Shown: one piece after another, positions 9,230 through 54,486 of the stretch
Layout of the letters: every line of letters starts with the position of its first letter
How positions within the stretch are numbered: position 1 is the first letter of the stretch
Program-made: the position numbers and the translations under genes
The notes under the pieces: model-generated
Told to the model about the DNA's origin: nothing
What the model saw: the letters and a program-made list of their open reading frames with translations, nothing else
The model's database searches: none
Assembly: GCA_965203055.1 (NCBI GenBank)
Contig: OZ241863.1
Coordinates: 3,264,001-3,328,000 of the forward strand
Direction of reading: 5' to 3'
Origin: Spirochaetia bacterium
Lineage (GTDB): Bacteria > Spirochaetota > Spirochaetia > SZUA-6 > Bin103
Length of the DNA stretch: 64,000 bases

Positions 9230-9286
9230 GCGGCCGCGGCGCAATTGCCGGGCCGCTGGGTGCGCGCCGCGGCTGAGCCGTCCGGT

Positions 9287-10626: not shown

Positions 10627-10639
10627 GCGCTACGGTTCC

Positions 10640-13090: not shown

Positions 13091-13114
13091 CGCCCGAAAC
13101 CCTTTGGACTTGAG

Positions 13115-14035: not shown

Positions 14036-14128
14036 GGCGCCCATGATACGGTATCTGAGGCCCGCCCGGCGAGCCGTTGCTTGCCTCACCGAAAATCCAC
14101 TCGAGGGGTAAGAGGTGCCTCATCCAAG

Positions 14129-31836: not shown

Positions 31837-32304
31837 TTATACGCTCGTCAGCGCCCGCTCCAGGTTCCTGGCGCGATTGCAGCGTCGCGCCCTGATGGCC
31901 ATCTGCCGGCCGCGGAATTGCACCTTGGCGCGACTCAGCTCATCCAGGTTGATCCGCTTGCCGTGGATCAGAACCGGATAGCAGATCGTGTTGGCAGGAG
32001 CAAAGTGAGCAGCGAAGTCGGCCCCCTTCTGAAGCTGCACCGACACGTGGGATACCTCGGCCCTGCCGCTCTTGAGCTCCAGCGGAACCGTGACCACGTG
32101 ACGTTCGTCAGCAGCCGGATAGAAGACAACGAAATCACATCTGCTCCCTTCCCATCGATGAGCGGGAAACGCCAAGTCCGCGTCAACGATGATCCGTTGA
32201 TCCGGAAGACCGGTGTCGTCGACGCCGCACTCATCCCGGCTCAACGACTGACTGATATTGCGTTCGCCTACCGCCGACCGGATTCCATCGAGAACCTCAT
32301 TCAT
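31837..32304 (-). CDS. Hypothetical protein, PD-(D/E)XK-like nuclease motif
   Basis: RCDFVVF...VPLELKSG...QLQ; ATGA overlap with upstream ATPase. Confidence 0.6.
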   Translation of the reverse strand: MNEVLDGIRSAVGERNISQSLSRDECGVDDTGLPDQRIIVDADLAFPAHRWEGSRCDFVVFYPAADERHVVTVPLELKSGRAEVSHVSVQLQKGADFAAHFAPANTICYPVLIHGKRINLDELSRAKVQFRGRQMAIRARRCNRARNLERALTSV

Positions 32305-38215: not shown

Positions 38216-41158
38216 TCATACGCGGAACACCTTCATTACTTCGTCGCCGAGGTGGTTGATGACCTTGACGGCGATGCGGCCCGACTCCGGGCGGTCGAAG
38301 GGACGGGAGGTGTCGCTGTGGAGGGTCTCCCAGGCGTCGCGGTCGATCTCGGCCTTGAGGGTGGTCTTCAGCGCCTTGTAGGGGTCGCTGGCGCCCAGGA
38401 AGTAGGCGTGGCGGACGAAGAAGCTCTCCTCGTCGTAGTCGGTGTCGATGAACCAGCAGGCGATGCCGTCAGGGCCGTCGCTGCGGACTTCGCCGGTGTT
38501 GGGATGGAACACGTCCACGCCGTTGACCTTGACCCGGAGGCGGTCGCCGGCGCCGCTGCCGTCCGCGACCTGCAGGAGGTCGATGTCGGGCTCGCCGAAG
38601 ATCACGAACAGGTTGCCTTTGCCGGTGTTCTTCAGGTCGCCGGCCATGTGCAGGTCGGCGTTCATGCGCGCCTTCAGGATCGGAATGCGGCCGAGGCGGG
38701 CGAGTTCGCCGGCGTGCGCGTCGTAGCTGAAGGCGCAGGCGATCAGCACGTCGTAGTCGGCGTCGGCGGCTTCGCGGGCGGCGGCGGCCAGGTCGGGGCG
38801 GGCGACGGTGCCGAACTCGGGGCCGATGAAGACGCCGGCGCGCCGTTCGGCGCCGGTGTCGGGGGCGCCCTCGAGGTAGCGCCCTTCGGCGCAGATCAGC
38901 TTGCCCGGCCAGGGGGTGAGGGCGGTGAAGGAGATGCGGTCTTCCTTGTGCGCCTGCTGGACGCCGGCGGTGCGCAGGTTTTCGAGGATCATGGCGGCGA
39001 AGTCGTGCTGGCCGCGGTCGTCGTAGCCGGTCTTGCGCTCGGCGAGGTGGTCGATCAGGTCGTCGTCCTCGTCCACGCCCAAGGTGCGGTGCGGCGCCAG
39101 GCTTTCCACGGTGAACGGGCCGGCCACGCGCACGATGCCCCGGTCTTCGTAGGGCTTGTCGTAGAGGTACTCGTAGTCCGCCTTGGCGGCGATGGAGGCG
39201 TCGATCTCCTGCTGGCGGGCGATGCGCGCGTCCCACCAGCGGCGGTGCAGGTCGGCGGGGCCGGCGTCCCACGGGTCGAGCGGTCGGTCCGGGACCGTCG
39301 CCGGCGAGTAGGTGCGGTTCAGCGCGCGGTTCAACGCCCGCAGCGCGGTCGCCTTGGCGGCGTCGGTCGGCGCGTCCTGAGTCCGCTGCCACGCCGCGGC
39401 GGCCGCGGCCGGCCACGGATCGCCCGGTTCGCGCGGGATTTCCCACTCTTCATAGATGCGGTCGAGGGCAGCGTTGAGTGCCGCGCGCAGCGGCTCCAGG
39501 GTCTCCTGCCAGCGCTCATGGATCACGTCGATCTCGGCGTTGTTGGCGATCGACTTGAGGGTGACGTGCGGCACGCGCTCGTACACGAACCCCTGCCGGA
39601 TGTCGCCGCTGGTCACGCTCTCGGACGGAACCGTCTGCGACAGTTCGGCTTCCTTGCGCCGCCCTTCCACACTGTCCGCCAGCAGGTAGTAGGGATAGCG
39701 CGCGCCCATCACGCGGGAGCGTGCCAAGGCCAGTGCGACGCGCGAGGTGTCGATGGTGATCCAGCGCCGCCCCCACTGCTCGGCCACGTAAGCGGTGGTC
39801 CCGGACCCGCAGGTAGGATCGAGCACGAGGTCGCCGGGATCGGTGGCCATCAGTATGCAACGCTGCGTAACTCGTATATTGGTTTGGACTACGTATATTA
39901 CGTCTTGCGCTCCCATAACATCGGTCCAAAGATTATTTAGTTCAGTTACTGGATGATCATTGAGAAAACGGATGAATCTTGGTGTACGACCACTGGAATA
40001 GAGTCTGCCAGCTCGAATTAAGCGCCACATATTATCTGCCGTTGTAGACCATTGACGATTAGAAGGTAGACGAAATACCTTCCCGTCTGCTTCTATTGTA
40101 GGATACAGACATGATTGTACGCCAGCATACATCGTGTGAAGTGACGTAGGCTGAAAAACCTTTGCGGTAGTATCCTCAGTGGAAAGCTTCTTCGTCGATA
40201 CTACTTCTCTATTCGGTCGGAGTGCATATCCGTACTGCGAAGCGGTACCGGATTCTTTCTTTTCTTGATAAAGACTACGAAACTTGGCGTCAGATCGAGA
40301 CTTTGCGTACCAGAGAATGAAGTCGGATACTCCAGTCAATCCGGACGATCCCAGTCCTCCGGTCTTCCGAACTGTAATCAACGAAAGGGCGTTCTCCGCA
40401 CCAAATACTTCATCCATCAGGGATCGAACGCGATGGACGTTCTCGTCGCCGATCTGCACGAAGATGCTGCCGCTCTCGGTGAGCAGGTCGCGCGCCACGG
40501 TCAGGCGGTCGCGCAGGTAGGTCAGGTAGGAGTGAATCCCGTCGCGCCACGTGTCGCGGAACGCCTTGACCTGCTCGGGTTCGCGGGTGATGTGTTCGGC
40601 TTTGCCGTCCTTCACGTCGCGGCTGGTGGTGGACCACTGGAAGTTGGAGTTGAACTTGATGCCGTAGGGCGGGTCGAGGTAGATGCACTGCACCGCGCCG
40701 CGCAGCCCCTCGCGCTCGGCCAGCGACGCCATCACCTGCAGGCTGTCGCCCAGGATCATGCGATTCGACCAGTTGGCGTCGTGGCGGTAGAACTCGGTGC
40801 GGGCATCACCGTCCGGCAGGCCGTTGAAGTCGGCGAACAGGTCGATCTGGTCGTCCGCGGCGCGCTCGCTCGCCTTGCTGCGCCGCAGCAGGTCGTCGAT
40901 CAGGGCCTTGGGGTGGACCTTCTCCTGGATGAACAGCGGGGGCGCCTGGACCACGAGGTCGGACCAGTCCTGCTCGTCCTTGCCGCGCCACACGAGTTGC
41001 GGATCGAGATCCTGGTTGCGCCGCTGATACGCCACCCGGACCGGGTGCTGATCGGCCTTCTCCATCAGCGACCGGTACTCGGCGGTGGGAATGTTCTTGC
41101 GCGACGCCTCGTCGTGCGTAATGGTCTCGACGGCCTTGGCCGCCCTGCGCTTCGCCAT
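38216..41158 (-). CDS. Site-specific DNA adenine methyltransferase, type III Mod-like
   Basis: IYLDPPYG (motif IV) before VLDPTCGSGTT (motif I), beta-class order; NRMILGDSL; C-terminal IAVKVINHLGDEV. Confidence 0.9.
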   Translation of the reverse strand: MAKRRAAKAVETITHDEASRKNIPTAEYRSLMEKADQHPVRVAYQRRNQDLDPQLVWRGKDEQDWSDLVVQAPPLFIQEKVHPKALIDDLLRRSKASERAADDQIDLFADFNGLPDGDARTEFYRHDANWSNRMILGDSLQVMASLAEREGLRGAVQCIYLDPPYGIKFNSNFQWSTTSRDVKDGKAEHITREPEQVKAFRDTWRDGIHSYLTYLRDRLTVARDLLTESGSIFVQIGDENVHRVRSLMDEVFGAENALSLITVRKTGGLGSSGLTGVSDFILWYAKSRSDAKFRSLYQEKKESGTASQYGYALRPNREVVSTKKLSTEDTTAKVFQPTSLHTMYAGVQSCLYPTIEADGKVFRLPSNRQWSTTADNMWRLIRAGRLYSSGRTPRFIRFLNDHPVTELNNLWTDVMGAQDVIYVVQTNIRVTQRCILMATDPGDLVLDPTCGSGTTAYVAEQWGRRWITIDTSRVALALARSRVMGARYPYYLLADSVEGRRKEAELSQTVPSESVTSGDIRQGFVYERVPHVTLKSIANNAEIDVIHERWQETLEPLRAALNAALDRIYEEWEIPREPGDPWPAAAAAAWQRTQDAPTDAAKATALRALNRALNRTYSPATVPDRPLDPWDAGPADLHRRWWDARIARQQEIDASIAAKADYEYLYDKPYEDRGIVRVAGPFTVESLAPHRTLGVDEDDDLIDHLAERKTGYDDRGQHDFAAMILENLRTAGVQQAHKEDRISFTALTPWPGKLICAEGRYLEGAPDTGAERRAGVFIGPEFGTVARPDLAAAAREAADADYDVLIACAFSYDAHAGELARLGRIPILKARMNADLHMAGDLKNTGKGNLFVIFGEPDIDLLQVADGSGAGDRLRVKVNGVDVFHPNTGEVRSDGPDGIACWFIDTDYDEESFFVRHAYFLGASDPYKALKTTLKAEIDRDAWETLHSDTSRPFDRPESGRIAVKVINHLGDEVMKVFRV

Positions 41159-41211: not shown

Positions 41212-41244
41212 GCGCGCGCGGTTCGATCGCGGTGTTACACATCG
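41212..41244. repeat. 33 bp direct repeat, copy A (30/33 identical to 44919-44951)
   Basis: GCGCGCGCGGTTCGATCGCGGTGTTACACATCG. Confidence 0.8.
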
Positions 41245-41384
41245 ATCGCATCTCCCTGTTGGTGTCGATGGCCAAGTCTACCGGTCTCCCCACAAGTCTT
41301 CCAGATACTCCCGGGTGGGCGGCGGGGCGCCGCGCGCCCATGCAAAAGCGCCGCCGACGCCGCGCCGTTGTAGGGGGCAGAGAA

Positions 41385-42338
41385 ATGGCATCGACCCTGC
41401 ATCAGCCCCACGATCACCTGTTCCGCCTGGTGTTCGCCGACCCCGAGGAGACCTCCGCCTTCCTCCGCGCCCGGCTGCCGGACTCGTACCAGGGCGGCAT
41501 CCTCTGGTCCTCCCTGCGCCGCGCCGCAGGCTCCTTCGTCGACCAGGAGCTGCGCGGCTCCGTCACCGACCTGCTGTTCGAAGTGCGTAGCGCCGCCGCG
41601 GCGCCGCGGCAGTGGCTCTACCTGCTGTTCGAACATCAGTCCCAGCCCGACCGCTGGATCACGCTGCGCCTGCTGCGCTACTGCTGCCGCATCTGGGAGA
41701 ACGACCGCCGAGACCACCCCGACGAGCAGTACCTGCGCCCGGTGCTGCCGCTGGTGTTCTACCAGGGCGAGCACCACTGGCGCTACGCCATCGAACTGGC
41801 GGAGTCGTTCCCGCCGGCGCTGCGCGGCCAGCCGTGGGTACCCCACTTCTCCCCGCTGCTGCTGGACCAGACCCGGATGGCGCCGGCGGCGGTGGCCGGG
41901 GAACTGCACGGGCGGTTGCTGCAACTGGCGATGATGCACACCTTCGAGCAGGAGCTGGGGGAGGCGCGGAAGCGAATCGCGCCGCTGATAGGGGAGTTGA
42001 AGTGGAAGCCGACGCATGGCGGGGTGGATTACTACCAAGCGTTCCTGAAGTATATTGTGAAGACCGGGCCGGCGGACACGCTGGAAGCGCTGGGTGAGCT
42101 GCTGCGACGCTTGGCGCCGGAACTGAGAGGTGATCTGATGACCTGTGGCGAGATACTGCGCCGGGAAGGTGAATTGAAGGGCCGACAGGAAGGCCGGCTG
42201 GAGACCATCGACGGGCTCCTGCGGGCCGGGATCGGGTGGCCGGTGATCCAATCCGCGACCGGTATCGACGAGCCCACCTACCGCGCCCTCAAACGCGACG
42301 CCGCCAACGGCACGGAGCAGACCGCCCCCCGCCAATAA
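41385..42338 (+). CDS. Rpn/YhgA-like nuclease, intact copy
   Basis: PHDHLFRLVF, TDLLFEV, YLLFEHQS, LPLVFYQG, GRQEG. Confidence 0.9.
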   Translation: MASTLHQPHDHLFRLVFADPEETSAFLRARLPDSYQGGILWSSLRRAAGSFVDQELRGSVTDLLFEVRSAAAAPRQWLYLLFEHQSQPDRWITLRLLRYCCRIWENDRRDHPDEQYLRPVLPLVFYQGEHHWRYAIELAESFPPALRGQPWVPHFSPLLLDQTRMAPAAVAGELHGRLLQLAMMHTFEQELGEARKRIAPLIGELKWKPTHGGVDYYQAFLKYIVKTGPADTLEALGELLRRLAPELRGDLMTCGEILRREGELKGRQEGRLETIDGLLRAGIGWPVIQSATGIDEPTYRALKRDAANGTEQTAPRQ

Positions 42339-42885
42339 TCCGCGCCCCGCGATAGTCCCGCCGGGCCGGGCGCGTCCATCACGGCCAGCGCGCCGCGCCG
42401 CCCAAAAACGCCGCCGACACCGCGCCGTTGTAGGGTCAGAGAATGTGGCATCGCCCCCTGCATCAGCCCTACGATCACCTGTTCCGCTTGGTGTTCGCCG
42501 ACCCCGAGGAGACCGCCGCCTTCCTCCGCGCCCGCCTGCCGGACTCGTACCAGCGCGGCTTCCTCTGGTCCTCCCTGCGCTGAACTGGCGGAGTCGTTCC
42601 CCCCGGCGTTGCGCAGCCAGCCCTGGGTGCCGCGCTTCTCCCCGCTGCTGCTGGACCAGACCCGGATGGCGCCGGCGGCGGTGGCCGGGGAGCTGCACGG
42701 GCGGTTGCTGCAACTGGCGATGATGCACACCTTCGAGCAGGAGCTGGGGGAGGCGCGGGAGCGGATCGCGCCGCTGATGTGGGAGTTGCAGGGAGAGCCG
42801 GTGCGCGGCGGCGTGGACTACTACCAAGCGTTCCTGAAGTATATTGTGAAGACCGGGCCGGCGGACACGCTGGAAGCGCTGGGTG

Positions 42886-44574
42886 CAGGAAAATCCCATG
42901 CTACAGAGGCTGGTGGGAGCCGCGCCGACGCGGAGGCCGCAGTGGCCAGCGACAATCAAGATGAGAACCTAGCGGCTGCCTCCGGCGGAGGGGAATGGGA
43001 CAGCGGGTGGCGCACCTGAGGGCTTGGTCCGACCGTAGTCGCACAGTTGACCCAGACGGCGACCGGATGGGAGCGCGGGGCGGGCCGGGAGTGGTTCGAG
43101 GAGTGGGGGCGGAGCGCTCGAAGCGGGCTGCGCCAGCCTCAGCCGGGCGCCATGAGGGCCTTGATGGCTACCTTCGGGCGCCCGGTAAAGTAGCGTAGTG
43201 CCGACGCCAAGTTGGTCCACCGGCGGTAGCGCAGGATCAGTGCCAGCACCAGGTTGTTGCACACCGCGCGGTTGGCAGGCGCCGCGTGGCGCCGCGCCAG
43301 GCAGGCATCCTCAGCCAAGGTGCGGTCACGGCGATGGTGGTTCTTCGACTCGATCGCCCAGTGGCCGCGGTTCCAGGCCAGCAGTTGCTCCGCAGAGGCT
43401 TCGGAGGCCGGCACCGAAGTGATGCCGTAGGCGTAAGTAACGGTCTTCTCGCCGCTCTTGAGCACGTGGCGGTCGCGGCGCACCCGGAACACCTGCGCGA
43501 CGTGCGGGTAGTTGAGGGTGTTGGGCGGCAAGGTCATAACTTCGATGTGGCGCCGTTCGATGCGGCCATGGGCCTTCTCGGACGCTGTGGAGAAGCGCGC
43601 GGTAGCGTGTTCCCAGGGGATGCTGACGAGTGCCTCGTAGGTCTCGGAGGAGTTCTGCTTGACGGTCATCTGATAGTGGGCCTGGTGCTGTTCGACGATC
43701 TTGGTGGCGGTGTCGCGGGTGGTGTGGAGGGCATCGAGGGTGATCACCGCGCCGCCGATCGAGACCGTCTCGAGCAGGGCGCCGACGGCGGCCAACTCGC
43801 CATTCTCGTCGTGGAAGTTGAGACTGGCGAGCGGCACGCCGGTGCCGTGCTCGACCAGGGTGGCGGTCTCGTAGCGTAGCGAGCCGTGGCGATTGGCGCC
43901 GCGAATGCGCTTGCCGTCGGCCGCGATGGCGCGGCGTTGGCGCGGAGCTGGCGGTGGCAGGCGGGACTCGGAATAGCGCTGCAGGATGGCTTCGAGGTGC
44001 TCGGTATCGGCGTGCATGAGCACCCGGTGGATGGTGGACTTGGGGGGCGGATGGTAGCGCCCGGAGCGCCGATTGCGCCACGCGCCAATATCTTTGAGGT
44101 CCTTCTGCGTGAGCCTCTGAGCATACTCCGCCGCCGCGACCGGGCCGCGAAAGTTGCCCAGCGCAGCCAACAGGTAGACCGTCAGCACGGTCGCAATGGA
44201 GTGCTTGCGCCCCTGGCCGCGGCGGTAGTCGGGGAGGTCTTCGAGTTCGGCGTACAGACTGCGCTTGTCGACTGCGGCGTTATCGTCTGGGTGTTCGGGC
44301 CGTGCCCGCCAGCAGTCTGGCAGCTTGCCGGACTGGCTGAGGATGCGCCGGGCATCGCGCCGCAAGGGGCGCACGAAGAGACGCTTCGGGTGGCCGTGAG
44401 GGTCGGTGTAGTGGCCGTTGCTGCGCGCGTAGCCCTTGCTGTCGCCGACGTAGGTCCAGTTGCCGGCCTGATACAGGGTGCCGGAGAAGCGCTGCGGATC
44501 GACGAAGCTCTCCGCAACCAGCAGCGGATGGCCGTAGTGCTGCTGCCAATCGGAGCTAGCATGGGATCGCCTTG
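42886..44574 (-). mobile_element. ISAs1 family element, apparently 5'-deleted
   Basis: TIRs CAGGAAAATCCCATGCTA / TAGCATGGGATCGCCTTG; TSD CGCTGGGTG at 42877-42885 and 44575-44583. Confidence 0.85.
43139..44556 (-). CDS. ISAs1 transposase preceded in-frame by a DUF4338-like C-terminal remnant; no clear start codon
   Basis: LPDYRRGQGRKH, IAADGKRIRG, ITLDALHT, VKQN, HGRIERR, HWAIES.HHRRD...ED; upstream YGHPLLVAESFVDP..GTLYQAGNW..VG. Confidence 0.8.
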
Positions 44575-44918
44575 CGCTGGGTGAGCTGCTGCGGCGCTTG
44601 GCGCCGGAACTGAGAGGTGATCTGATGACCTGTGGCGAGATACTGCGCCGGGAAGGCGAGTTGAAGGGTCGGCAGGAAGGCCGGCTGGAGGGCCGGCTGA
44701 GGGCCGCCTGGAAGGGCGCCAGGAAGGTGAGTTGAAGGGCCGGCGTGAAGGCCGGCTGGAGACCATTGACGGGCTCCTGCGGGCCGGGATCAAGTGGCCG
44801 GTGATTCAATCCGCCACCGGCATCGACGAGCCCACCTACCGCGCCCTCAAACGCGACGCCGCCAACGGCACGGAGCAGACCGCGCCCCGCCAATAATCCC
44901 GGCGCAACGACGGCCACT

Positions 44919-44951
44919 GCGCGCGCGGTTCGATTGCGGCGTTACCCATCG
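44919..44951. repeat. 33 bp direct repeat, copy B
   Basis: GCGCGCGCGGTTCGATTGCGGCGTTACCCATCG. Confidence 0.8.
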
Positions 44952-45107
44952 CACCAGCACGTCGACGTCGCTCTCGGCCGCAGCCTGATCGCGGGCGAAG
45001 GAGCCGAACAGAGCAACGCCGGAGACGCCGAACCGCTCCTTGAGCGTCGCCTTGCTCGCGCGGAGCAACTCCAGAACCTGGTCTCGGTTCGTGGTGCCCT
45101 GCCTCAT
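44950..45107 (-). pseudogene. Minimal nucleotidyltransferase (MNT) N-terminal half, truncated
   Basis: LKERFGVSGVALFGSFARDQA..ESDVDVLV, similarity ends at repeat B. Confidence 0.8.
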
Positions 45108-45133
45108 CGTCGCCAACAATCCGAACCATCCTG

Positions 45134-45718
45134 CTACCGTATCAGTTCCTCTACCGTACGCCACATCTTGTCGAATGACGGTGCCCCTCGCCTCGCCTGA
45201 TCAAGATCGAACAAGGAACTGAACGCCGGTTGGTCACGAGTCTCTTGGTATGCTCGTCCGGCCGCCATGCGGCCGGCAAGCCATCCCTTCGCATTGCGGG
45301 TCGATTCCGGGTTGGCTGGCGCTGTCGTGTCGCTGCCTAGGTCCCGGTGCCCGGCCAACGAATCGGCGGCGGCCAGAAACCACGCCTCGTATTCTCTACA
45401 TGCCAGCACGACCCCAATGCGGCGATCGTTTCGAGCGGTCGTAGCGCGCCGGAGAATCTCCGGCGCCTTGTCGCAAGGAAGGTCGTCGTCGGCGTCGAGC
45501 ACTATCAGTATACCGCCGTTGGGACCGGATTGACGCGCGGCGAGATCGACGTACCGCTCCAGTACGTTCTCCTTGAGCAGGAGGTCGCGGTTCACCCTGA
45601 TCGGTTTCGGCACCCGCGGTACGGTGCCGGGAACGATGGCGTCAGCAATGCGGCGGATCAGGATCGGCACTGCCTGCACTTCTCCAACTCCCTCGACGAT
45701 CGCGATGATCACGGGCAT
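45134..45718 (-). CDS. DUF4276 family (TOPRIM-like) protein
   Basis: IVEGVGE, ILIVLDADD, REYEAWFLA, PSFDKM. Confidence 0.85.
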   Translation of the reverse strand: MPVIIAIVEGVGEVQAVPILIRRIADAIVPGTVPRVPKPIRVNRDLLLKENVLERYVDLAARQSGPNGGILIVLDADDDLPCDKAPEILRRATTARNDRRIGVVLACREYEAWFLAAADSLAGHRDLGSDTTAPANPESTRNAKGWLAGRMAAGRAYQETRDQPAFSSLFDLDQARRGAPSFDKMWRTVEELIR

Positions 45719-45721
45719 CGG

Positions 45722-46945
45722 TCAGTGCGTGGTGTCGGTCTGGAACAGGTCGAGGCGAAGCTGGGATGACTGGTCCGGGTCAGGGCGCAACTGATCGATC
45801 CGCAGCAGCTCGCCGGCGCGGAAGAGGTGATCGCGGAGCGACGAACGGCCCGCTTCGTCCAGGGGGCCAATTCTAGTTTCGGCATGCTCGGAGAGTACGG
45901 CGAGGATCGAGGTGTCGGGGATGGTGTCGTGGTCGAGCAGGTCGGCGCTGTGGCTGCTGACGATGACCTGCGCCGCTCGGCTGGCCTCGGTCAGACTGTC
46001 CATGAGCACGCTGGCGGCGGCCGGGTGCAGGGCGCTCTCCGGCTCTTCGATGCCGATCAGGGTTGCCCGCTCCCCGTTGCCGCTCGTCCCCTGGAACAGC
46101 GCGACGAGCACCCCGAGCGCGCGCAGCGTGCCGTCGGACATGTTGCTGGCCAGGAACCGCCACGGATGGTGAGCTCCGCGCACGTCCTGACGAAAGTCCA
46201 GGGTGAGTTTCGTCCCCATCGTGCGAGGCTCAACGCCCGTGACGCCGGGCGTGATGGCGGCCAGATATTCCTCGACCGCCGTCTTGCCGCGCCCTCCGAG
46301 GTTTGCGAGGACGCTCGCCAAGTTGCCTCCATCTCGCTTCAGCAGATCTCCAGGGTCGGGCGCCTGGAGATCGCGGATCGCTTCGGGGTTCAGATTGTAG
46401 AACCCCATCTCAGACAATGCATCGTAGACTGGCCGGAACGTGGTGAATCCCGACATGGCGACCAGATAGAGACGATCTCTTGCGCACGCCGGCGGATTGG
46501 GAATCGTGCTGTCAACTACTGTGCCGTCCTCGACCTTGTAACGGTCGTAGCCGGATGCGCCGGCGATGAAGCATTCCTCCTCTTGCACGCTGTAGCCACC
46601 GCGAGGTTGCGCGCCCACCCGGAACGCGTACCAGCCTTCGGCGCGGGGAAGCCGCAGGTCGAGCCGGATGCCGAAGTGGTTCGGGTGGCCGCCGGAACGT
46701 CTGCGCACTTCCTGAATGCCGCCCCGGTCGCGCAGCGCGTGGTCCAGTGAGAAGCGCAGCGCCTCGGCCACGAAGCGCAACGCATCCAGGAAGTTGCTCT
46801 TGCCGCTCCCGTTCGGGCCGACCAGGAAGGAGAGCGGCGCCGGCCGCACGTCGCACGCGGCAATGCTCTTGTAGTTCCGCAGGCGCACGCGGGTCACCAG
46901 CCGGGAGTCGGTGTCTCCAACGTGGCTCACGGGGAAATCAGCCAT
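45722..46945 (-). CDS. ABC-type ATPase (AAA_21/RecF-SMC-like)
   Basis: NYKSI, GPNGSGKSN, MSDGTLR, IEEPESALHP, VSSHS. Confidence 0.9.
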   Translation of the reverse strand: MADFPVSHVGDTDSRLVTRVRLRNYKSIAACDVRPAPLSFLVGPNGSGKSNFLDALRFVAEALRFSLDHALRDRGGIQEVRRRSGGHPNHFGIRLDLRLPRAEGWYAFRVGAQPRGGYSVQEEECFIAGASGYDRYKVEDGTVVDSTIPNPPACARDRLYLVAMSGFTTFRPVYDALSEMGFYNLNPEAIRDLQAPDPGDLLKRDGGNLASVLANLGGRGKTAVEEYLAAITPGVTGVEPRTMGTKLTLDFRQDVRGAHHPWRFLASNMSDGTLRALGVLVALFQGTSGNGERATLIGIEEPESALHPAAASVLMDSLTEASRAAQVIVSSHSADLLDHDTIPDTSILAVLSEHAETRIGPLDEAGRSSLRDHLFRAGELLRIDQLRPDPDQSSQLRLDLFQTDTTH

Positions 46946-48875
46946 CCAGTACCGCCTGTGGGGCCTCGTCCCGACGATCGCGGTTCCCGCCAGGGCCAGC
47001 CGGTGCGACCAGACCCATTTCCGTAAGAAACTGCGAGGGCGGTTTGCGGTATCCGTAATACTTACGGGCTCTGGTCAACGTGAGGGTATCGCTGGCGCGG
47101 GTGACCGCCACGAAACAGTTCCTGCGCTCCTCCTCGACCTCCTTGCTGAACATTCCCCGGCGCAGCGCCTGGAACGACGGCAGCACTTCCTGCGCCAAGC
47201 CGATCAGATAGACGTGCTTGAACTCCAGGCCCTTCGCGCGGTGCACGGTCATGCAGCGCACGGCATCCTTACCGGGCCGCGGTTCCTTCGACGCCAGATC
47301 GAGTTGCGGAAGATAGTCGTGCAGCGTGATGCCGCTGCCGTGCTCGCCCATGATCTCGTGGTGAAGCGTGCGCCACGTATCGACTTCCTCTTTGGTAACC
47401 GCGCCGTCGCCGTTGCCGCACCACTCCTTCCACCCCTGGTCGAGGAACGCTTCGATCACCGCCGGAAACGCAAGCGAATCGACCAGCTCAGAGCGAATCA
47501 CGCGCAGCGCGCCGGCGGCTCGCTGGTCGGCAACCGCCCCCGCAGCGTCGGCCCACGAACGCAGAAAGTCGCCGCCGACCAGCGCCGCCGCGGCCGCCAC
47601 CGTTTCCGGCTCCAGCGCGGTTCCGCTCAGCGCTTCCCATGCCAGGCACAGCCGGCGCAGGATCGTCCGGTCGTGGCGCGCGTTGGCCAGCCGCAGGGCA
47701 TGCAGGATCGTGCCTACCGCGGGAGACTCGAACTCCCTGGTCCTCTGCGGCAGGTGCGCGTCATAGCCGGCGCTGCGCAACGCGGCGGCGGCGCGCTCGA
47801 TGAGCTTCACCGTACGCCCGATGACGACGCATTCGGCGGCAAGCAACTCCCGCTCCGCCATGTCTTGCGCCACGAACGCGGTCTCTTGCTCAGGTGATTC
47901 GAATACCTTGCACCGCACCACGTCGCTGCGCTGCGCGCCGCCCGATTGAGCGCTGATCGGCTTCTTGCCGGAATCCCGCTCCATGTTATGCGCGATCAAC
48001 CGGTTCGCGAGCTCGACGATCGGCTGCGGGCAGCGGTAGCATTCCGGCAACTGCACGATCTTCGGCTGATATTCCCGGCGCAGCCGCCGGAGCCGTTCCG
48101 GGCTGGCGCCGTTCCACTGGAAGATGATCTGATCGTCGTCGGCGACCACGAACAGATTGCGCGGCGCCGGCGCAATGAGGCGCAGCAGTTCGTACTGCGC
48201 GTTGTTCGTGTCCTCAAACTCGTCGATGCAGACGTGCGACCAAGCGAGGCGCAGCCCGCGCGCAACGCCGGCCTGCTCCACGAGGAGCCGGCGGGCGAAG
48301 TGCAGCAGACTGCCGTAGTCCAGCCGGTTGGCGGCGACCAGAGAGTCGCAGTAACCCCGGTACAGACGCGGCAGCCAGGCGGGGGTATCTAGCAGGAACG
48401 GCGCCTGCCGGCCGCCGTCGTACGATTTGGCGAACAGCCGATCGATCAGGTGCACGAGGTTCTTTCGGTCGGCGGGCGGCGATTCCTCCTCCTCCGGCTC
48501 CTCCGGCAGTTGCGCGATCGTCTCCTCCAACACCGCGATGCGGTCCTCGTCCTGCACCAGCAGGCTGAAGTCGGGCCGCAGCCCCACGTGGCTGCCGTGT
48601 TGGCGCAGGAGATCGGCGGCGAACGCATGGATGGTGCACAGGCGCGCGCGGTCCGTCCGCCCGCCGAGCAGCGCATCGAGGCGCTCCCGCATCTCCGCAG
48701 CCGCCTTGTTGGTGAAGGTAAGCGCCAGCACCGAGGCGTGTTCGTCCGCTTCGATCACCCGCGCCACGCGCTGCGTCAGCACCGTAGTCTTGCCCGAACC
48801 CGGCCCCGCCAGCACCAGCAGCGGCCCGTCGTCCCAGCCCACGGCGGTCCGCTGGTTTTCGTTCAAGGTCTTCAC
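46938..48875 (-). CDS. UvrD/Rep family ATP-dependent helicase
   Basis: LNENQ, AGPGSGKT, LTFTNKAA, IDEFEDT, MTVHRAKGLEF, EERRNCFVAVTRA; GTG start overlaps Res stop. Confidence 0.9.
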   Translation of the reverse strand: MKTLNENQRTAVGWDDGPLLVLAGPGSGKTTVLTQRVARVIEADEHASVLALTFTNKAAAEMRERLDALLGGRTDRARLCTIHAFAADLLRQHGSHVGLRPDFSLLVQDEDRIAVLEETIAQLPEEPEEEESPPADRKNLVHLIDRLFAKSYDGGRQAPFLLDTPAWLPRLYRGYCDSLVAANRLDYGSLLHFARRLLVEQAGVARGLRLAWSHVCIDEFEDTNNAQYELLRLIAPAPRNLFVVADDDQIIFQWNGASPERLRRLRREYQPKIVQLPECYRCPQPIVELANRLIAHNMERDSGKKPISAQSGGAQRSDVVRCKVFESPEQETAFVAQDMAERELLAAECVVIGRTVKLIERAAAALRSAGYDAHLPQRTREFESPAVGTILHALRLANARHDRTILRRLCLAWEALSGTALEPETVAAAAALVGGDFLRSWADAAGAVADQRAAGALRVIRSELVDSLAFPAVIEAFLDQGWKEWCGNGDGAVTKEEVDTWRTLHHEIMGEHGSGITLHDYLPQLDLASKEPRPGKDAVRCMTVHRAKGLEFKHVYLIGLAQEVLPSFQALRRGMFSKEVEEERRNCFVAVTRASDTLTLTRARKYYGYRKPPSQFLTEMGLVAPAGPGGNRDRRDEAPQAVLDG

Positions 48876-51800
48876 TTGGCCGGCGGCGGCTCGCTGATTG
48901 CGGCGTCGAAGTCTTCCTGCAGGGTGTAGACGTCGGTGAGCTCGGCGAAGTCCCAGCGGCCGCAGGAGCGCAGTCCGTTCACTCCCGGCACCCAACAGGT
49001 CTTCATGGTCGCCTTCTTTTCCTTGGCGTCCTCGCGCCGGTAGCCCTTGATCTCGACCACCAGGTGGAGCGGGTCGTCCTCGCCGCGGCCGTCGTCCACC
49101 AGCACGATGAAGTCAGGGAGATAGGTGCGCGCCTCGGCGCCGCAGCGATAGGGCACTTCCAGGCCCAGGCCGTGGTTCTTGACGTAGGCGCGGACCCGCG
49201 GGTGCGATTCGACGAAGCGGCAGAACTCCGCCTCCCAGTCGCTGTCGCACACCACCCAGTTCACGTGGCAGCGGCGCGGATCGGTCTGCCAGCGGGTCTG
49301 CCTGGAGGTGGTGAAGTTGACGTGGATCGTCGAACCGGCCGGGTTGTACGGATCGAGCACGGCCGTGACGGGGCGCTCGCCGACGTGGCGCGCCACGATG
49401 CCGCGCGTGATGCGCAGGCAGGCGCGGTCCGCCAGTTCCCGGTAGATCAACTGGGCGGGGAAGGTGCCGCCCTTGCAGATCAGGTGATCGTGCAGCCACT
49501 GCCGCGTGATGCGCTTGAGCTGGCCGAACAGATGCAGCTTCGGCTCCTCGCCGGGATCGCGCCAATGTTGTTCCAGCAGCGTCTTGGTGAGATGGTACGT
49601 CACCGTCGACGGGCGCATCGCCTTGAGATGGTCCAGGCTGAGATCGACCCCCTCGCCGATGATCCCCTCGTTGCGGGTGATGGACGGTCCCACCAGCTCC
49701 GGCGTGAGCACCAGCGTCGAGTCTTCGGTGAACGCCGCGGCGACGTGCTCGTCCGGCAGTTCCACGCGGTAGCCCCGCACGTGCGGAAAGCGGAGCTCGC
49801 AGCCGTCCCGGTCCGGCGTGATCGCCCTGACGGTTACGGTGGCGCGCGCCTTCTGCGGTCTGGCGACCACCGGCTCGGCGGTGAAGTCGAACGGGATGCC
49901 GAGCACGTCGGCGTACTCGACGTCGAACCGCCCCTCCTCGTTCAGCTCGTAGGACTGCCGGCGCAGAGCGCGCCCGACCACCTGCTCGCACAGAAGCTGG
50001 GTGCCGAACGCGCGCACGCCCAGGACGTGGGTGACGGTGCGCGCGTCCCAACCCTCGGTGAGCATGGCGACCGAGACCACGCAGCGGGTCTCGCCCCCCA
50101 GCCGGCCCGCCATGCCGACCGTGTTCATCACCTCGCGCAGCAGGTCCTGGTCGGAGAGCGCCTCCGCCTGGCGGCGGTCGCCGGTGCGCTCGACGATCTC
50201 GCGCCGGAAGCGCGCGATCTCGTCGCCCGCGGCGGCCCGGAAGTCGGCGCCGAGCGCCTCCCCGGAATCGAGCTGCTCGCTGTCGATCAGCAGGGTGCGC
50301 GGCCGGGCGAGCTGATTGCCGTACTCGTCGAAGTTGCGGAACAGCGCCAGGCGCCCGTTCTCCAGCGTGGTGGAGCCGTCTTCGTTGCGGCGCTCGAAGC
50401 CGGCGATGTAGTCGTACACCAGCTTCGAGGTCGCGGTGTTGTTGCAGACCACGATGAAGCAGGGCGGCGCCTCGATGCCCGCCTCCCGCCACTGCTCGAA
50501 GGTCGCGGCGTAGTGACCGTAGAGCGCTTCGAGCGCGGTCTGCAGCTCCACGGGGATGTTCAAGGGATCGAGGCCGCCGGCCTTGCCGCGGCCCTTGCGC
50601 GGCATGCGCCGGCCGACGTGCGCCCACAGGTTGCGGAACTTGGGCACGTCGGCGCCGGGGATGTTGTCGGCCACCGGCACGCGCGGCAGCTTGACGATGC
50701 CGCACTCGATCGCGTCCATCAGCGAGAAGTCGCTCATCGTCCACGGGAACAGCGTCCCCTCGGCGTAGCCGGAACCGCGCAGGAAGAACGGCGTGGCCGA
50801 CAGGTCGATGACGCGGCTCAGGCCGAGCTTGCGCTGCACCGCCTCCAGGCCGGAGATCCAGACCCGCGCCGCTTCCTGGTTCTTCTCCGCCTCCCGCCGG
50901 TCCTCCCCCTTGAGGTCGCCTTCCTCGCTCTCCTCCCGGGGGCGCTCGCGGTAGCAGTGGTGCGCCTCGTCGTTGAACGCCAGCACCCGCTTCATGCCCA
51001 TGAGGTCGGGCATGACCCGCTGCAGCATCTGCCCCTCGGTCTCCTGCGTGCGCAGCTTCGGGCCGCGGCCCTGCAGCAGGGAGCGCCCGCCGCGCGAGAG
51101 CTCCTGCGTCTCGCGGCGCATGAAGGCGTGGTAGTTGGTGATGACGATCTTGGCCCGGTGCAGGTCGCCGAGCAGATCGCGCGGCACCAGCTCGCGGCTG
51201 CGGTAGTAGCTGTCCGGGTCGTTGGGCTGCAGCACGCGCAGCCGGTCGCGGATGGTCAGCCCCGGCGTGACCACCAGGAAGCCGCGCGTGAACCGGCGGC
51301 TGCCGGGATGGCGCACCGCGTTGATCGTCTGCCAGGCGATCAGCATGGCCATGACGGTCGTCTTGCCGGCGCCGGTGGCGAGCTTGAGCGCCAACCGGGC
51401 GAGGATCGGGTTGGCTTGCTCGTTCACCGTCTCCAGGTGGTCGAGGAACTGCCGTCCGCGCGCCCCGGCCGGCGCGGCCTCGGTCAGCCAGATCACCGTC
51501 TCCGCGGCTTCCACCTGACAGAAGAACGGCCGCAGGCCGCTGAACCGGTGATGCCGCCAGTGGTCCAGCAGGCGCGCGGTCTCGGGCGTGACCCGCCAGC
51601 GGGCGCGCGGCAGCCGCCGCCACTCGTCCACGGCGCGGCGCACGCTGTCGATGAGCGCCGACAGGTCGTATTGCTGGCCGTCGGCCTCCAACCCGGCCGC
51701 CGCGGTGTCGAACACGATCTCCCGCTGCCGGCCGCGCTGCTTGCGGACCGGCGGAATCGGCGTGATGAACGAGACGCGGCGGCGGCGGTCGGCGATGCGG

Positions 51801-51892
51801 TTGGTGGGCTGGCGGTTCTCGTCCAGCTCCCAGTGCCGTCCCGGATACTCGTACGGCGAGTTCAGGACCGGCCGCCGAAAGAACTCATCCAT
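48872..51892 (-). CDS. Type III restriction-like DEAD/DEAH helicase-endonuclease (Res)
   Basis: ATGAGKT, NDEAHHCY, DLSATP, MLTEGWD, EQVVGRALRR, YLPDFIV...VVEIKG. Confidence 0.9.
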   Translation of the reverse strand: MDEFFRRPVLNSPYEYPGRHWELDENRQPTNRIADRRRRVSFITPIPPVRKQRGRQREIVFDTAAAGLEADGQQYDLSALIDSVRRAVDEWRRLPRARWRVTPETARLLDHWRHHRFSGLRPFFCQVEAAETVIWLTEAAPAGARGRQFLDHLETVNEQANPILARLALKLATGAGKTTVMAMLIAWQTINAVRHPGSRRFTRGFLVVTPGLTIRDRLRVLQPNDPDSYYRSRELVPRDLLGDLHRAKIVITNYHAFMRRETQELSRGGRSLLQGRGPKLRTQETEGQMLQRVMPDLMGMKRVLAFNDEAHHCYRERPREESEEGDLKGEDRREAEKNQEAARVWISGLEAVQRKLGLSRVIDLSATPFFLRGSGYAEGTLFPWTMSDFSLMDAIECGIVKLPRVPVADNIPGADVPKFRNLWAHVGRRMPRKGRGKAGGLDPLNIPVELQTALEALYGHYAATFEQWREAGIEAPPCFIVVCNNTATSKLVYDYIAGFERRNEDGSTTLENGRLALFRNFDEYGNQLARPRTLLIDSEQLDSGEALGADFRAAAGDEIARFRREIVERTGDRRQAEALSDQDLLREVMNTVGMAGRLGGETRCVVSVAMLTEGWDARTVTHVLGVRAFGTQLLCEQVVGRALRRQSYELNEEGRFDVEYADVLGIPFDFTAEPVVARPQKARATVTVRAITPDRDGCELRFPHVRGYRVELPDEHVAAAFTEDSTLVLTPELVGPSITRNEGIIGEGVDLSLDHLKAMRPSTVTYHLTKTLLEQHWRDPGEEPKLHLFGQLKRITRQWLHDHLICKGGTFPAQLIYRELADRACLRITRGIVARHVGERPVTAVLDPYNPAGSTIHVNFTTSRQTRWQTDPRRCHVNWVVCDSDWEAEFCRFVESHPRVRAYVKNHGLGLEVPYRCGAEARTYLPDFIVLVDDGRGEDDPLHLVVEIKGYRREDAKEKKATMKTCWVPGVNGLRSCGRWDFAELTDVYTLQEDFDAAISEPPPAK

Positions 51893-51921
51893 CATCGGAA
51901 TGCTCACGCCCATCTACCGCT

Positions 51922-54486
51922 TCAGTGGGGGAGGTAGGCGGCGTGGAGCTGCTCGGCGGCTGCTCCGGCGGCGATCAAGCGGTCGATCCGGGCGTCGTCG
52001 TGGCCCAGCTCGCGCAGGATGGCGCGGGTGTCGCTGCCCACTTTCGGCATCGGGCGGGGGATCCGCAGGCGGCTGTTGGCGAAGCGGGCGTAGGTGGGAG
52101 CCGGCGTGTCGGCGGGGCTGCCGACCGGGTGGTCGAGCAGGCGGATCACCGAGATGGCGGAGCCGCCGCTCCACGCCGCGCGCTGCTCGTCGGTGAGCTC
52201 GCGCAGGCCGGCGCGGCGCACGTCTTCGATGCAGTCTACGCGGTGGCAGCCGAATCCCGCGGCGTTGAACGCGCGTTCCCAGTAAGCCACCGGCCGGGTG
52301 CCGATGGCGGCTTGCAGGGCGGCAATCCGCGCCGCCTCGTCGCCGGCGTCGACCGGTACCGCCGCCAGCTCCGCAATCTCCCGCAGCCGCGGCAGGTCCG
52401 CCGCCAGGCCGGTCAGCGCCAACCAGCCGTCGGCCGCGCGGTAGAGGTGTTCCAGGGAGTGCGCGCCCAGCGCTTCCTGCCCCTGCGGGCCGTCGTCGGG
52501 TTGGCGGTCCGCGGCGGCCCAGGCGAACGGCGCCTGCACCAGTTGCGCGCCCTGCGCCAGCGAGGTGAGCACCAGGTCGCCGCCGCCCTCCCGCTTGCGG
52601 CGCAGCAGGGCCAAGGCGATGCCGTAGGTGCCGGAGTAGCCGGTGAGGTAGTCGATGCAGGAGGCGAAGCCGTGCAGCTCCGGGCGCGCGCCCGGGCCGC
52701 CGTAGCGGCGCATGATCCCGGTCGCCGCCTGCAGCACCGGATCGAAGCCGGGCAGATCGGTCCACGGCCCCGGCTTCGGCCCGTTGAACGCGGTCAGGTT
52801 GAGGTAGACGATCTCCGGGTTGAAGCGCGCCACGCTGGCGTAGTCGATGCCCAACCGCTCGGCCACGCCGGGGCGGAAGTTGTGCACGATCACGTCGGCA
52901 GCGCCGGCCAACTGCTCGAACACCTGCTTGCCGGCCTCCTGCTTGAGATCCAGGATCATGCTGCGCTTGCCCTGGCTCACCTCGATATGCGCCCAACACA
53001 TGGTGAAGGGGCCGAAGTAGGGGTCGGGCGCGTCGATCTTGATTACCTCCGCGCCATACTCCGCCAAGGTGCGGGCGCAGCAGGGGCCGGCCAGCACGGT
53101 GGACAGATCGAGCACCTTGAGACCTGCCAGGATCTGCGCCCGCGCCTGCGGCCGCGCTGCAGGGCGCCCCGCGCCGTTCGCACTGCCATTGCCGCCCGCG
53201 CGGTCGGCGTCCCCGGCCGCTGCCGGCCACGCGCGCAGCAGGGCGGGGAGATCGGCCGGACGGGCCGGGCGCGGGGTGAGCCAGCGCTCCCCGGTGCGCC
53301 CCAGGGAGGTCTGCACGCCAAGCTGGCGCAGCGCTCCGTGCAGCGGATCATCGATCTCCACGGTGAGCGCCGCGGCCGCCGTCTCCGGCGCCTGCAGCCA
53401 CTCCCGGGTGGTGCGGTGGACGCTGAACGGCACCCCGAAGCGGCGCATGATCGGCGTCCAGGCGGCGGCCGGCCGCTGCCGGAAGGCGGCCGCCATCCGC
53501 TCGCGCAGCGTCACTTTCCATTCCGGCGACATACCGTCCACGTCCTGCAGGTTGTTGTCACGGGTAAGATCGGGGTAAGGCGCGGCGTCGACCATGCCGT
53601 CGGCCAGCAACCCGTCATAGATGCCGAGCGCCTTGACGAGCTGCGCCGCGTGGCGGCGGTTGCCGCCGGCGAGCAGGAACACCCAGCCGCCGTCGCCGGC
53701 CTGGTAGCTGTCGAACATCGGCGGCTGGGTGGGGCGCAGCCGGTCGATCAGCCGCCGTTGCTCGGCGGCGCCGGCCCGCCGCATCCGCTCGCGCAGGGCG
53801 TCGCGGGCGGGATTGGGGCGCTTGCCGTAGCGTGCCGGCGGGTCACCCACGCGCAGCAGGAAGGCGCCCATCGCCGACAGCGCGGCGCCGGCCAGCGGCA
53901 CTTCGATCACCTCGCCGCGGCCGCTGTCTTCGCGCGCGTAGAGCGCCAGGGTCACCGCCAGCGCGCCGTGGATCGCGCCGTAGGCGGACGCCAGCGGGAT
54001 CGGCGTGTAGAGCGGCGGCGCCTGCAATTCGCGGCGGATCGAGTGCAGGTCGGTGAACAGCCCGGTGGCCGCGCCGAGGACGCCTTCGAAGGCGCGCAGC
54101 GCGGCGCGCTCCTCGCCGGCGCCGAACCCCGGCAGGGAGAGGTACACCAGCCGCGGGTTGGCGGCCGCCATGGCGGCGGCGCCAAGTCCCAGGCGTTCCA
54201 TCACCCCGGGGCGGAAGTTCTCGATCACCACGTCCGCCGCCCGCACCAGTTGGAGCGCGGCGCCGCGCCCGGCGGCGCTCTTCAGATCCAACTCCAGGGT
54301 CTGTTTGCCGCGGTTGAATACGGCGCCGGCCGGCGTGGCGCAGTCCGGTTGGCCGGGGCGCGCCACCTTGATCACCTCGGCGCCCTGATCGGCCAGCAGC
54401 ATCCCGGCCAGCGGTCCGGCAAGGTAATGGCCGAAGTCGATAACCCGAACGCCCGCCAGCGGCGGCTCTGCAGTCGATCCCGTCAC
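51922..54486 (-). CDS. CaiB/BaiF family CoA transferase, tandem double domain
   Basis: Two repeats of LAG.(R/K)V.D..LAGP...LA..GAEVIK, GK..LDLK, ADVV(I)..NFRPGV.ERLG. Confidence 0.9.
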   Translation of the reverse strand: MTGSTAEPPLAGVRVIDFGHYLAGPLAGMLLADQGAEVIKVARPGQPDCATPAGAVFNRGKQTLELDLKSAAGRGAALQLVRAADVVIENFRPGVMERLGLGAAAMAAANPRLVYLSLPGFGAGEERAALRAFEGVLGAATGLFTDLHSIRRELQAPPLYTPIPLASAYGAIHGALAVTLALYAREDSGRGEVIEVPLAGAALSAMGAFLLRVGDPPARYGKRPNPARDALRERMRRAGAAEQRRLIDRLRPTQPPMFDSYQAGDGGWVFLLAGGNRRHAAQLVKALGIYDGLLADGMVDAAPYPDLTRDNNLQDVDGMSPEWKVTLRERMAAAFRQRPAAAWTPIMRRFGVPFSVHRTTREWLQAPETAAAALTVEIDDPLHGALRQLGVQTSLGRTGERWLTPRPARPADLPALLRAWPAAAGDADRAGGNGSANGAGRPAARPQARAQILAGLKVLDLSTVLAGPCCARTLAEYGAEVIKIDAPDPYFGPFTMCWAHIEVSQGKRSMILDLKQEAGKQVFEQLAGAADVIVHNFRPGVAERLGIDYASVARFNPEIVYLNLTAFNGPKPGPWTDLPGFDPVLQAATGIMRRYGGPGARPELHGFASCIDYLTGYSGTYGIALALLRRKREGGGDLVLTSLAQGAQLVQAPFAWAAADRQPDDGPQGQEALGAHSLEHLYRAADGWLALTGLAADLPRLREIAELAAVPVDAGDEAARIAALQAAIGTRPVAYWERAFNAAGFGCHRVDCIEDVRRAGLRELTDEQRAAWSGGSAISVIRLLDHPVGSPADTPAPTYARFANSRLRIPRPMPKVGSDTRAILRELGHDDARIDRLIAAGAAAEQLHAAYLPH

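Follow-up and report, generated by a model that had tools for sequence, protein, structure and literature searches.

The Gabija system depends in vivo on two proteins, GajA and GajB, each of which is essential, with GajB docking on the ATPase domain of GajA (PMC10781630). Another combination of an ABC ATPase with a TOPRIM protein, known as HEC-01, has been described as embedded in Hma systems (Payne et al., bioRxiv 10.1101/2024.01.29.577857), which consist of a helicase (HmaA), an m5C methylase (HmaB), and an ATPase (HmaC) (PMC8565338). The MAD3-MAD4 nuclease is a 2:2 heterotetramer, in which ATPase activity and metal-dependent DNA cleavage are found only in the assembled complex (PMC13662399), and DUF4276 has been treated as equivalent to Mad4 and as a member of the TOPRIM superfamily (PMC12065111). 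The present analysis concerns a run of four genes (45134-51913), encoding a type III-like restriction enzyme (Res), a UvrD helicase, an ABC ATPase, and a DUF4276 protein, in a window of 64,000 nucleotides from a Spirochaetia bacterium (contig OZ241863.1, positions 3,264,001 to 3,328,000). An original prediction, made from the sequence of this window, had proposed the last three of these genes as a split version of Gabija and a candidate undescribed system. The comparisons presented here indicate that the module is probably a composite, in which a HEC-01 pair stands beside a GajB orphaned from a partly deleted Gabija, with both nested in a three-gene Res-Mod-Hel system.

The four genes are encoded on the reverse strand. 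The Res gene (48872-51913), the first of the host system, encodes a BPTD_3080-family type III-like restriction enzyme of 1013 amino acids, with a superfamily 2 (SF2) helicase and a C-terminal endonuclease. It is followed by UvrD (46938-48875; 645 amino acids from a GTG start), an intact helicase of the GajB family and superfamily 1 (SF1), which has no GajA partner in the window, and then by the ABC-type (AAA_21/AAA_15) ATPase gene, assigned to HEC-01A (45722-46945; 407 amino acids), and the DUF4276 gene, assigned to HEC-01B, the TOPRIM-like nuclease partner (45134-45718; 194 amino acids). The junctions, read directly from the sequence, are those that had been claimed, with the TGA of Res and the GTG of UvrD overlapping as GTGA, the stop codon of UvrD and the start of the ATPase overlapping over 8 nucleotides (ATGGCTGA), and three nucleotides (ccg) separating the TGA of the ATPase from the ATG of DUF4276. 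The UvrD frame starts at a TTG (48995) in a mechanical list of open reading frames (ORFs), and it is the GTG at 48875 that matches the N-termini of the homologues. The assignment of the four products as UvrD, ABC ATPase, DUF4276, and type III Res is endorsed by Pfam, and that of Res by NCBIfam as well, and all four ORFs are full length in relation to their profiles, with intact catalytic motifs. Close packing of this kind is commonplace in operons, and does not prove, by itself, that the genes form a single system. A scan of positions 44800-52300 for regulatory signals returned no promoter-like sequence and one terminator-like sequence, fewer than expected from shuffled sequence and located on the wrong strand, and is uninformative for a genome of high G+C content.

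The ATPase matches the PADLOC model of HEC-01A (PDLC04178, 3.8e-159) over residues 15-403 of 407 and profile positions 7-396 of 399, as well as AAA_21 (2e-27) and AAA_15 (8e-18) in Pfam, and it carries a Walker A motif (GPNGSGKS at 43), a signature motif (MSDG at 269), a Walker B motif (IEEPE at 299), and an H-loop (SHS at 331). Homologues at E<=1e-10 account for 7989 of the 8000 proteins scored, and numerous homologues, 91-97% identical, lie on short contigs. The DUF4276 protein, encoded on the same strand, matches HEC-01B over nearly its full length (PDLC04196, 4.3e-75), and residues 8-190 align with positions 1-192 of the 192 of Pfam PF14103 (1.9e-13). The ATPase and DUF4276 are thus identified, by sequence, as the HEC-01 of PADLOC, an already-described candidate defence pair which is homologous, at the level of Pfam, to the characterised MAD3-MAD4 nuclease, and the suggestion that the system was undescribed is not supported.

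The DUF4276 protein is TOPRIM-like, and the motifs on which this had been proposed (VEG..E and DxD) are present and conserved in a set of 65 homologues, from which both the conservation counts and an AlphaFold2 model were built (96.3 for pLDDT, the predicted local distance difference test score; predicted template-modelling score, pTM, 0.92). V8, E9, G10, and D75 are each found in all 65 proteins, as are E109 and K144, whereas E111 is shared by 64 and E54 by 59; position 13 is occupied by E in 52 proteins and by D in the other 13, and position 77 by D in 50 and by E in 12. At residue 80 (45479-45481), just past the DxD motif, the window has a leucine in place of the cysteine found in 63 of the 65 homologues, and a cysteine of its own two residues further on. 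The DUF4276 profile, compared with the sequences of solved structures, produced a single match, which is not meaningful (E=1), and the structure of MAD4 was not found in the copies of the PDB that were used, which probably predate it.

The neighbourhood of the ATPase was compared across genome contigs by means of a profile built from 18 homologues, which recovered 593 relatives, of which the best 80 were kept, representing 79 distinct loci from many phyla; in 72 of these, the upstream sequence spans 2 kb or more. The neighbouring genes were called by tblastn with the proteins of the window, and DUF4276 was counted where it starts within 200 nucleotides of the end of the ATPase. A DUF4276 homologue is found at this position in 71 of the 79 loci, with at least 150 amino acids aligned in 68, and the eight exceptions are L002, L003, L004, L007, L008, L032, and L060, all of which have downstream sequence of 10 kb, together with L058, in which the contig ends 309 nucleotides past the ATPase. 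The conserved unit is the ATPase-DUF4276 pair. A UvrD of the GajB type lies within 10 kb of the ATPase in three of the loci (L001, L002, and L003, at 70-79% identity), all of which are metagenome-assembled genomes of the Spirochaetia, with the ATPases closest to that of the window, while the matches in L004 and L032 reach only 25-26% and fall on a different helicase. The clean trio is found in the window only, given that DUF4276 is missing in L003 and reduced to some 20 codons in L002, and that L001 has a GajA of its own.

This distribution bears directly on the original prediction, which had expected the UvrD to accompany the ATPase-DUF4276 pair in other genomes, and which is largely contradicted by the finding of such a UvrD in only three of the 79 loci, all in close relatives. 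The part of the claim that stands is the presence of the three Gabija-like activities on separate polypeptides; the part that falls is their interpretation as one split Gabija, considering the three loci with a GajB-type UvrD, the intact GajA in L001, and a remnant of gajA in L002. Given the rarity of the UvrD beside the pair, and the presence of GajA next to GajB in relatives, the trio is therefore better understood as an orphaned GajB adjoining HEC-01.

The evidence on the UvrD itself is consistent in this respect. It matches the GajB model PDLC00114 (6.3e-209) over its full length, with UvrD-helicase (7e-60) and UvrD_C (5e-27) in Pfam, and has GSGKT (position 26) and DEFED (position 218) as helicase motifs. 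In L001, in which the ATPase is 84% identical to that of the window, the genes are ordered Res-GajA-GajB-PDC-M38A-HEC-01A-HEC-01B-Mod. The GajA of this locus is a fused, full-length protein of 564 amino acids (PDLC00094, 2.7e-200; Pfam AAA_15, AAA_21, and OLD-like_TOPRIM at 1e-11), the stop codon of its gene overlaps the start of gajB, and the GajB is 75% identical to the UvrD of the window. A search of a plasmid collection with the UvrD matched 50 records, four of which cover at least 80% of its length; the contexts of two of these four, from Methylocystis and Polymorphobacter, were read. Both of these helicases (38-39% identity; PDLC00114 at 2e-243 and 3e-270) are located after a full-length GajA (PDLC00062), with an overlap of 4 nucleotides.

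In L002, approximately 150 nucleotides between Res and gajB align with the 5' end of the gajA of L001, covering codons 1-49, including the Walker A motif, at 80-88% amino acid identity and with one frameshift. The divergence of this stub does not exceed that of the intact genes, and a recent loss of gajA is favoured for L002 on this account. The window has no remnant of this type, as tblastn with the GajA of L001 recovered only P-loop similarity to the window's own ATPases, and there is no room for a gajA between Res and UvrD, because the stop codon of the former overlaps the start of the latter. The gajB genes without gajA thus have at least two types of junction, namely the clean overlap of the window and L003, and the 49-codon stub of L002. 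The N-terminus of the UvrD of L003 (MTI...) was considered as three in-frame codons of gajA, and this was dropped, since the gajA and gajB alleles both start with ATGAC and the match is ambiguous; L003 is not counted as having a remnant.

A canonical Gabija was probably once located between Res and HEC-01, with gajA having been deleted since, and the most economical history is an ancestral order of Res-GajA-GajB-HEC-01A-HEC-01B-Mod, followed by the loss of gajA. Immediately past gajB in L001, before PDC-M38A, there is a copy of approximately 56 nucleotides of the 5' end of HEC-01A (local alignment score 43-50, whereas 200 shuffles reach 29 at most), which suggests that PDC-M38A was inserted later and that gajB and HEC-01A were adjacent beforehand. 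In view of the overlap between its start and the stop of Res, the GajB of the window is likely to be translated still, and it is probably a leftover as far as Gabija-type defence is concerned, because Gabija needs both proteins; by analogy with its relatives, GajB alone would not be expected to provide this defence. A literature search on the orphan GajB of Gabija, judged by titles and the opening lines of abstracts, returned no paper on this question.

A number of points weigh against the composite reading. The 79 loci are the best-scoring of the 593 relatives, and do not form a random sample. The overlaps between Res and gajB in the window and L003 are clean, and the loss of gajA in these two genomes is inferred rather than seen. 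In all three genomes without gajA (the window, L002, and L003), gajB is intact, with ratios of nonsynonymous to synonymous substitution (dN/dS; pairwise Nei-Gojobori estimates among the window, L001, L002, and L003) of 0.26-0.34, which are only mildly above the 0.19-0.25 of the pairs that include L001, and all three retain the stop/start overlap between gajB and HEC-01A. On the side of the pair, the DUF4276 model has no fold match in the PDB at E<=0.001 by Foldseek, and its likeness to the OLD TOPRIM is weak, with the top matches being the C-terminal regions of OLD proteins, 6njv (E 5.4e-3, probability 0.96, TM 0.43), 6njx, 6njw, and 6nk8. The transfer of the MAD3-MAD4 mechanism is an extrapolation, because the ATPase scores 83.2 bits on the NCBIfam MAD3 model, against a cut-off of 420. 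Published tests of the function of HEC-01, made with other representatives, disagree, with one reported to provide no protection in Escherichia coli MG1655 (10.1101/2024.01.29.577857), and another reported to protect E. coli B from one or more of the phages T4, T5, and T7 (PMC12881386).

The persistence of a constrained and intact gajB between Res and HEC-01A raises the possibility that, once gajA had been lost, the helicase was co-opted, with GajB and HEC-01A/B forming a three-protein, Gabija-like machine, in which the separate ATPase and TOPRIM proteins stand in for the fused GajA. The translationally coupled junctions, the overlap shared by the three genomes, and the dN/dS values would all fit such an arrangement, as would the proximity of HEC-01 and a complete Gabija on a Streptomyces plasmid, and the ABC ATPase is a conceivable docking partner for GajB, because the solved structure of the complex has GajB in contact with the ATPase domain of GajA (PMC10781630). 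This is, nevertheless, an unlikely account, given that 76 of the 79 HEC-01A loci have no GajB-type UvrD, that L001 carries its own GajA, that the trio is not maintained in the nearest relatives, because L002 and L003 have no intact DUF4276, and that HEC-01A resembles the GajA models of PADLOC only around the P-loop (~1e-14 over 45 residues). The intactness of gajB and its dN/dS fit a recent loss of gajA and a retained function alike, and it seems quite improbable that a new partner was captured by this gene and that HEC-01A/B replaced the fused GajA. If this were true, it would represent a natural case of modular partner-swapping between defence systems of the OLD family.

A further component of the composite reading is the system in which the genes are nested. 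The Res protein exceeds the cut-off of NCBIfam NF046055 ("BPTD_3080 family restriction endonuclease"), with 1304 bits against 800, and matches ResIII (6.5e-7) and RE_endonuc (2e-5) in Pfam. A literature search for "BPTD_3080" found no paper. Its partner, Mod (38216-41158, reverse strand), is an N6/N4 DNA methyltransferase of 980 amino acids (PADLOC MTase_III PDLC03632, E=0, 1320 bits; Pfam N6_N4_Mtase, 1e-31), which lies 4 kb downstream of DUF4276, and is 7.7 kb away from Res, with embedded and mobile DNA in between. The third gene, Hel (28854-30923, reverse strand), encodes an SF1 (UvrD-like) helicase of 689 amino acids (Pfam UvrD-helicase, 1e-16; UvrD_C, 4e-13), with an N-terminal region that has no domain assignment.

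Homologues of Res are found in 40 plasmid records, and include full-length proteins, 52-67% identical to it, that are annotated as members of the BPTD_3080 family; eight contexts were read. On a plasmid of P. avellanae, Res, a Mod that is 61% identical to that of the window, and a gene of approximately 690 amino acids, annotated as a 3'-5' exonuclease, are contiguous, and the last of these is the ortholog of Hel. Over its full length, Hel is 49-57% identical to the gene that follows Mod on three plasmids, and 75-80% identical to its homologues in L004, L005, L006, and L032, and in L005 this homologue directly follows Mod. Given this contiguity and orthology in both plasmids and relatives, positions 28854-51913 are therefore interpreted as one Res-Mod-Hel system with two occupied gaps, and Res-Mod-Hel, as far as such comparisons indicate, is a conserved three-gene type III-like system. 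The claim that the module is nested in a restriction-modification (R-M) operon is thus upheld, and extends as far as Hel. The ATPase is bracketed by Res and Mod in eight of the 79 loci (L001-L006, L032, and L064), although the order in L064 is Mod-ATPase-DUF4276-Res, at only 33-41% identity. The identification of the host system as Hma was considered and rejected, given that Mod is an N6_N4_Mtase, in contrast with the m5C methylase of Hma, and that there is no Hma model among the PADLOC matches listed for Res, Mod, and Hel (for Mod, the best 25 of 43 families).

The gap between Res and Mod is occupied by genes in five of the eight plasmid contexts. The plasmids of Gemmobacter, Sphingomonas, and Rhizobium have inserted genes in this position, that of Picosynechococcus has a toxin-antitoxin-like pair, and that of Methylomagnum has a single gene, with CBASS genes past Mod, whereas no inserted genes are found in Chondrocystis, and a Tn3 transposase follows Res in Methylibium. 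Embedded defence cassettes appear to have a further host in the BPTD_3080-type Res-Mod-Hel, both gaps of which carry other genes in many genomes; these gaps are probably where defence cassettes and mobile elements land.

The UvrD of the window may also be considered as a servant of this R-M system, translated together with Res and aiding the restriction enzyme in the processing or unwinding of the DNA. Its start overlaps the stop of Res in both the window and L003, and the relevance of a helicase activity is indicated by the fact that the host system normally has an SF1 helicase of its own. That helicase, Hel, is already present, however, and the Res-to-Mod gap contains a GajB-type helicase in none of the eight plasmid Res-Mod loci, while HEC-01A directly follows Res in L005 and L006. 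Overall, this role for the UvrD is very improbable.

The first gap, between Res and Mod, contains GajB, HEC-01A/B, an insertion sequence (IS), and copies of Rpn genes. An ORF for an ISAs1-family transposase (43139-44917, reverse strand), of which only residues ~225-561 match transposase families (NCBIfam NF033564, 5e-44, over 280-561; Pfam DDE_Tnp_1_assoc and DDE_Tnp_1), is inserted in an Rpn/YhgA pseudogene (42458-44893, forward strand), which survives as two pieces (42458-42884 and 44574-44893) on either side of the IS, with an internal deletion. In tblastn with the intact Rpn, residues 56-100, 188-288, 286-332, and 310-368 are found in this pseudogene at 84-95% identity. The intact Rpn-family (YhgA-like) nuclease or putative transposase (41232-42338, forward strand; Pfam Transposase_31, 5e-38; NCBIfam RpnA-like, 1e-19) lies on the strand opposite to that of the operon. 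A third copy of the Rpn/YhgA family, a paralogue with 46% identity, is found at 14132-15067 (reverse strand).

The second gap, between Mod and Hel, contains IetAS and other candidate genes, all on the reverse strand. These are IetA (37184-38185), the AAA ATPase of a defence pair (PADLOC IetA, 1.8e-72; NCBIfam IteA, 3e-59, below its cut-off), and IetS (34676-37180), the S8 protease of the same pair (PADLOC IetS, 4.4e-37), followed by a DUF5131 gene (33821-34603; PADLOC PDC-M41B, 3e-80; Pfam DUF5131, 2e-80), an AAA_15 ATPase similar to PD-T4-4_A (32301-33824; PADLOC, 5e-33), and a PDC-M06B-like gene (30993-31562; PADLOC PDC-M06B, 8e-28). The DUF5131 gene, which is PDC-M41B-like, has no PDC-M41A partner in the window, and L002 has a PDC-M41A. 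The G+C content of the window is approximately 70%, with a lower stretch (0.54-0.68) at ~30-50 kb, falling to 0.54 at 32-34 kb.

With an IS inside a pseudogene, and an Rpn gene on the opposite strand between DUF4276 and Mod, the first gap may also represent no more than decaying cargo, composed of an orphan GajB and a HEC-01 copy that has no role in defence, with the IS and Rpn insertions having uncoupled Mod from Res. Erosion is common in the relatives, as shown by losses of HEC-01B and, in L003, by a duplicated, partial ATPase and a fragment of PDC-M38A. The four ORFs of the window are full length, however, with intact catalytic motifs, and the dN/dS of HEC-01A is 0.08-0.22, so that decay of this type is considered improbable.

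The loci of the relatives of the window are themselves mosaics. The HEC-01B gene is lost or truncated in L002, L003, L004, L007, L008, and L032, with approximately 20 codons of DUF4276 left in both L002 and L008. In L004 (11381-11749) and L032 (11244-11615), a HepT-like (HEPN) RNase follows HEC-01A in place of DUF4276, which may reflect a swap of the effector or, alternatively, a toxin gene inserted at this position. Past the first HEC-01A of L003, positions 11249-13272 contain a C-terminal fragment of PDC-M38A (residues 367-727, 86% identity), a second, partial HEC-01A, and a DUF1828 gene, followed by Mod, and this region is a rearranged, duplicated cassette. The Res genes of L001 (1125-4139) and L003 (5056-8058) are 99% identical (dS 0.07), but identity falls to 76% for their gajB genes and to 85% for their HEC-01A genes, which indicates the exchange of cassettes by recombination; the dN/dS of Res is 0.10-0.32.

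In L007 and L008 (~9900-11300), an ATPase with 79-80% identity stands alone among metabolic genes, with an AMP-binding enzyme upstream, and L008 also has a fragment of 25 residues of Res upstream of the ATPase, in addition to the DUF4276 codons downstream. These loci look like the remains of a deleted island, apparently at the same chromosomal site as that of L002. The only plasmid match of the ATPase is L086 (Streptomyces sp. NBC_00445 plasmid, 7971-14783), in which a HEC-01 pair is located 1.1 kb from a complete Gabija (GajA PDLC00070, GajB PDLC00117). This is a second, independent neighbourhood of HEC-01 and Gabija, involving another subfamily of the latter.

The components of the locus are of known kinds throughout, namely HEC-01, a degenerate Gabija, and the embedding of one defence system in another, and the original prediction's alternative of a backup that acts when the R-M system is inhibited is already in print for embedded systems generally, in the discussion of the HEC-01 preprint (10.1101/2024.01.29.577857). 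The locus also provides a caution, in that two unrelated systems can pass for one new system when their genes are tightly packed and their domains add up plausibly, and here it was the comparison of neighbourhoods that told them apart. Defence loci erode piecemeal, leaving GajB without GajA, DUF5131 without PDC-M41A, and, in the relatives, HEC-01A without HEC-01B, orphans that automated callers would report.

When the locus is compared with known systems, its UvrD shares with Gabija its membership of the GajB subfamily PDLC00114, whose members follow a fused GajA in L001 and in two plasmids. It differs from Gabija in that the window has no GajA, the fused ABC ATPase-TOPRIM nuclease of OLD class 2, and that the ATPase and TOPRIM proteins encoded alongside are of another family. 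In sequence, the UvrD is closer to the structures of UvrD/PcrA (~1e-60) than to the solved GajB of B. cereus (~1e-14).

The MAD3-MAD4 pair of MADS is similar in its separate ABC-type ATPase and DUF4276 TOPRIM-like nuclease, tied to a methylation-based defence locus (PMC13662399), and the acidic pocket and lysine reported for MAD4 have plausible counterparts, mapped by pattern, in residues E9, E54, D75, D77, E109, E111, and K144 of the window. By homology with this pair, HEC-01A and HEC-01B would most likely form a hetero-oligomer, with nuclease and ATPase activities dependent on its assembly. The ATPase of the window is, however, a homologue and not an ortholog of MAD3 (PADLOC mad3, 3e-25, in addition to the NCBIfam score given above), its DUF4276 has no match to a PADLOC mad model at E<=0.001, and the other mad genes are absent. 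PARIS (AriA and AriB) and the class 1 OLD enzymes also combine an AAA_15/AAA_21 ABC ATPase with a TOPRIM nuclease, which in PARIS, as here, are two proteins (PMC11464382), and the ATPase may, by analogy with these, act as a sensor or licensing subunit during phage infection. The differences in this case are that the TOPRIM partner is DUF4276, rather than DUF4435 or the OLD type, and that the match to AriA is partial (7e-28), restricted to the C-terminal part.

The arrangement as a whole recalls the "guilt by embedding" of Hma, BREX, DISARM, and type I R-M systems, in which, as here, defence cassettes on the same strand lie between the genes of a methylation-based system. The BPTD_3080 host falls outside the four families analysed in the embedding preprint (10.1101/2024.01.29.577857), in the available text of which the sole mention of "type III" refers to DRT type III, and the words "UvrD" and "GajB" do not occur. 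The BPTD_3080-type Res-Mod-Hel would extend guilt by embedding beyond these families, and its two gaps are places in which new candidates may be sought. With HEC-01 as described, the window shares the adjacent ABC ATPase and DUF4276/TOPRIM genes, the near-full-length matches to both models, and the embedding in another defence system. It differs in its host, a BPTD_3080-type Res-Mod-Hel with an N6/N4 methylase, rather than Hma, with its m5C methylase (PMC8565338), and in the additional GajB gene that precedes the pair in the operon.

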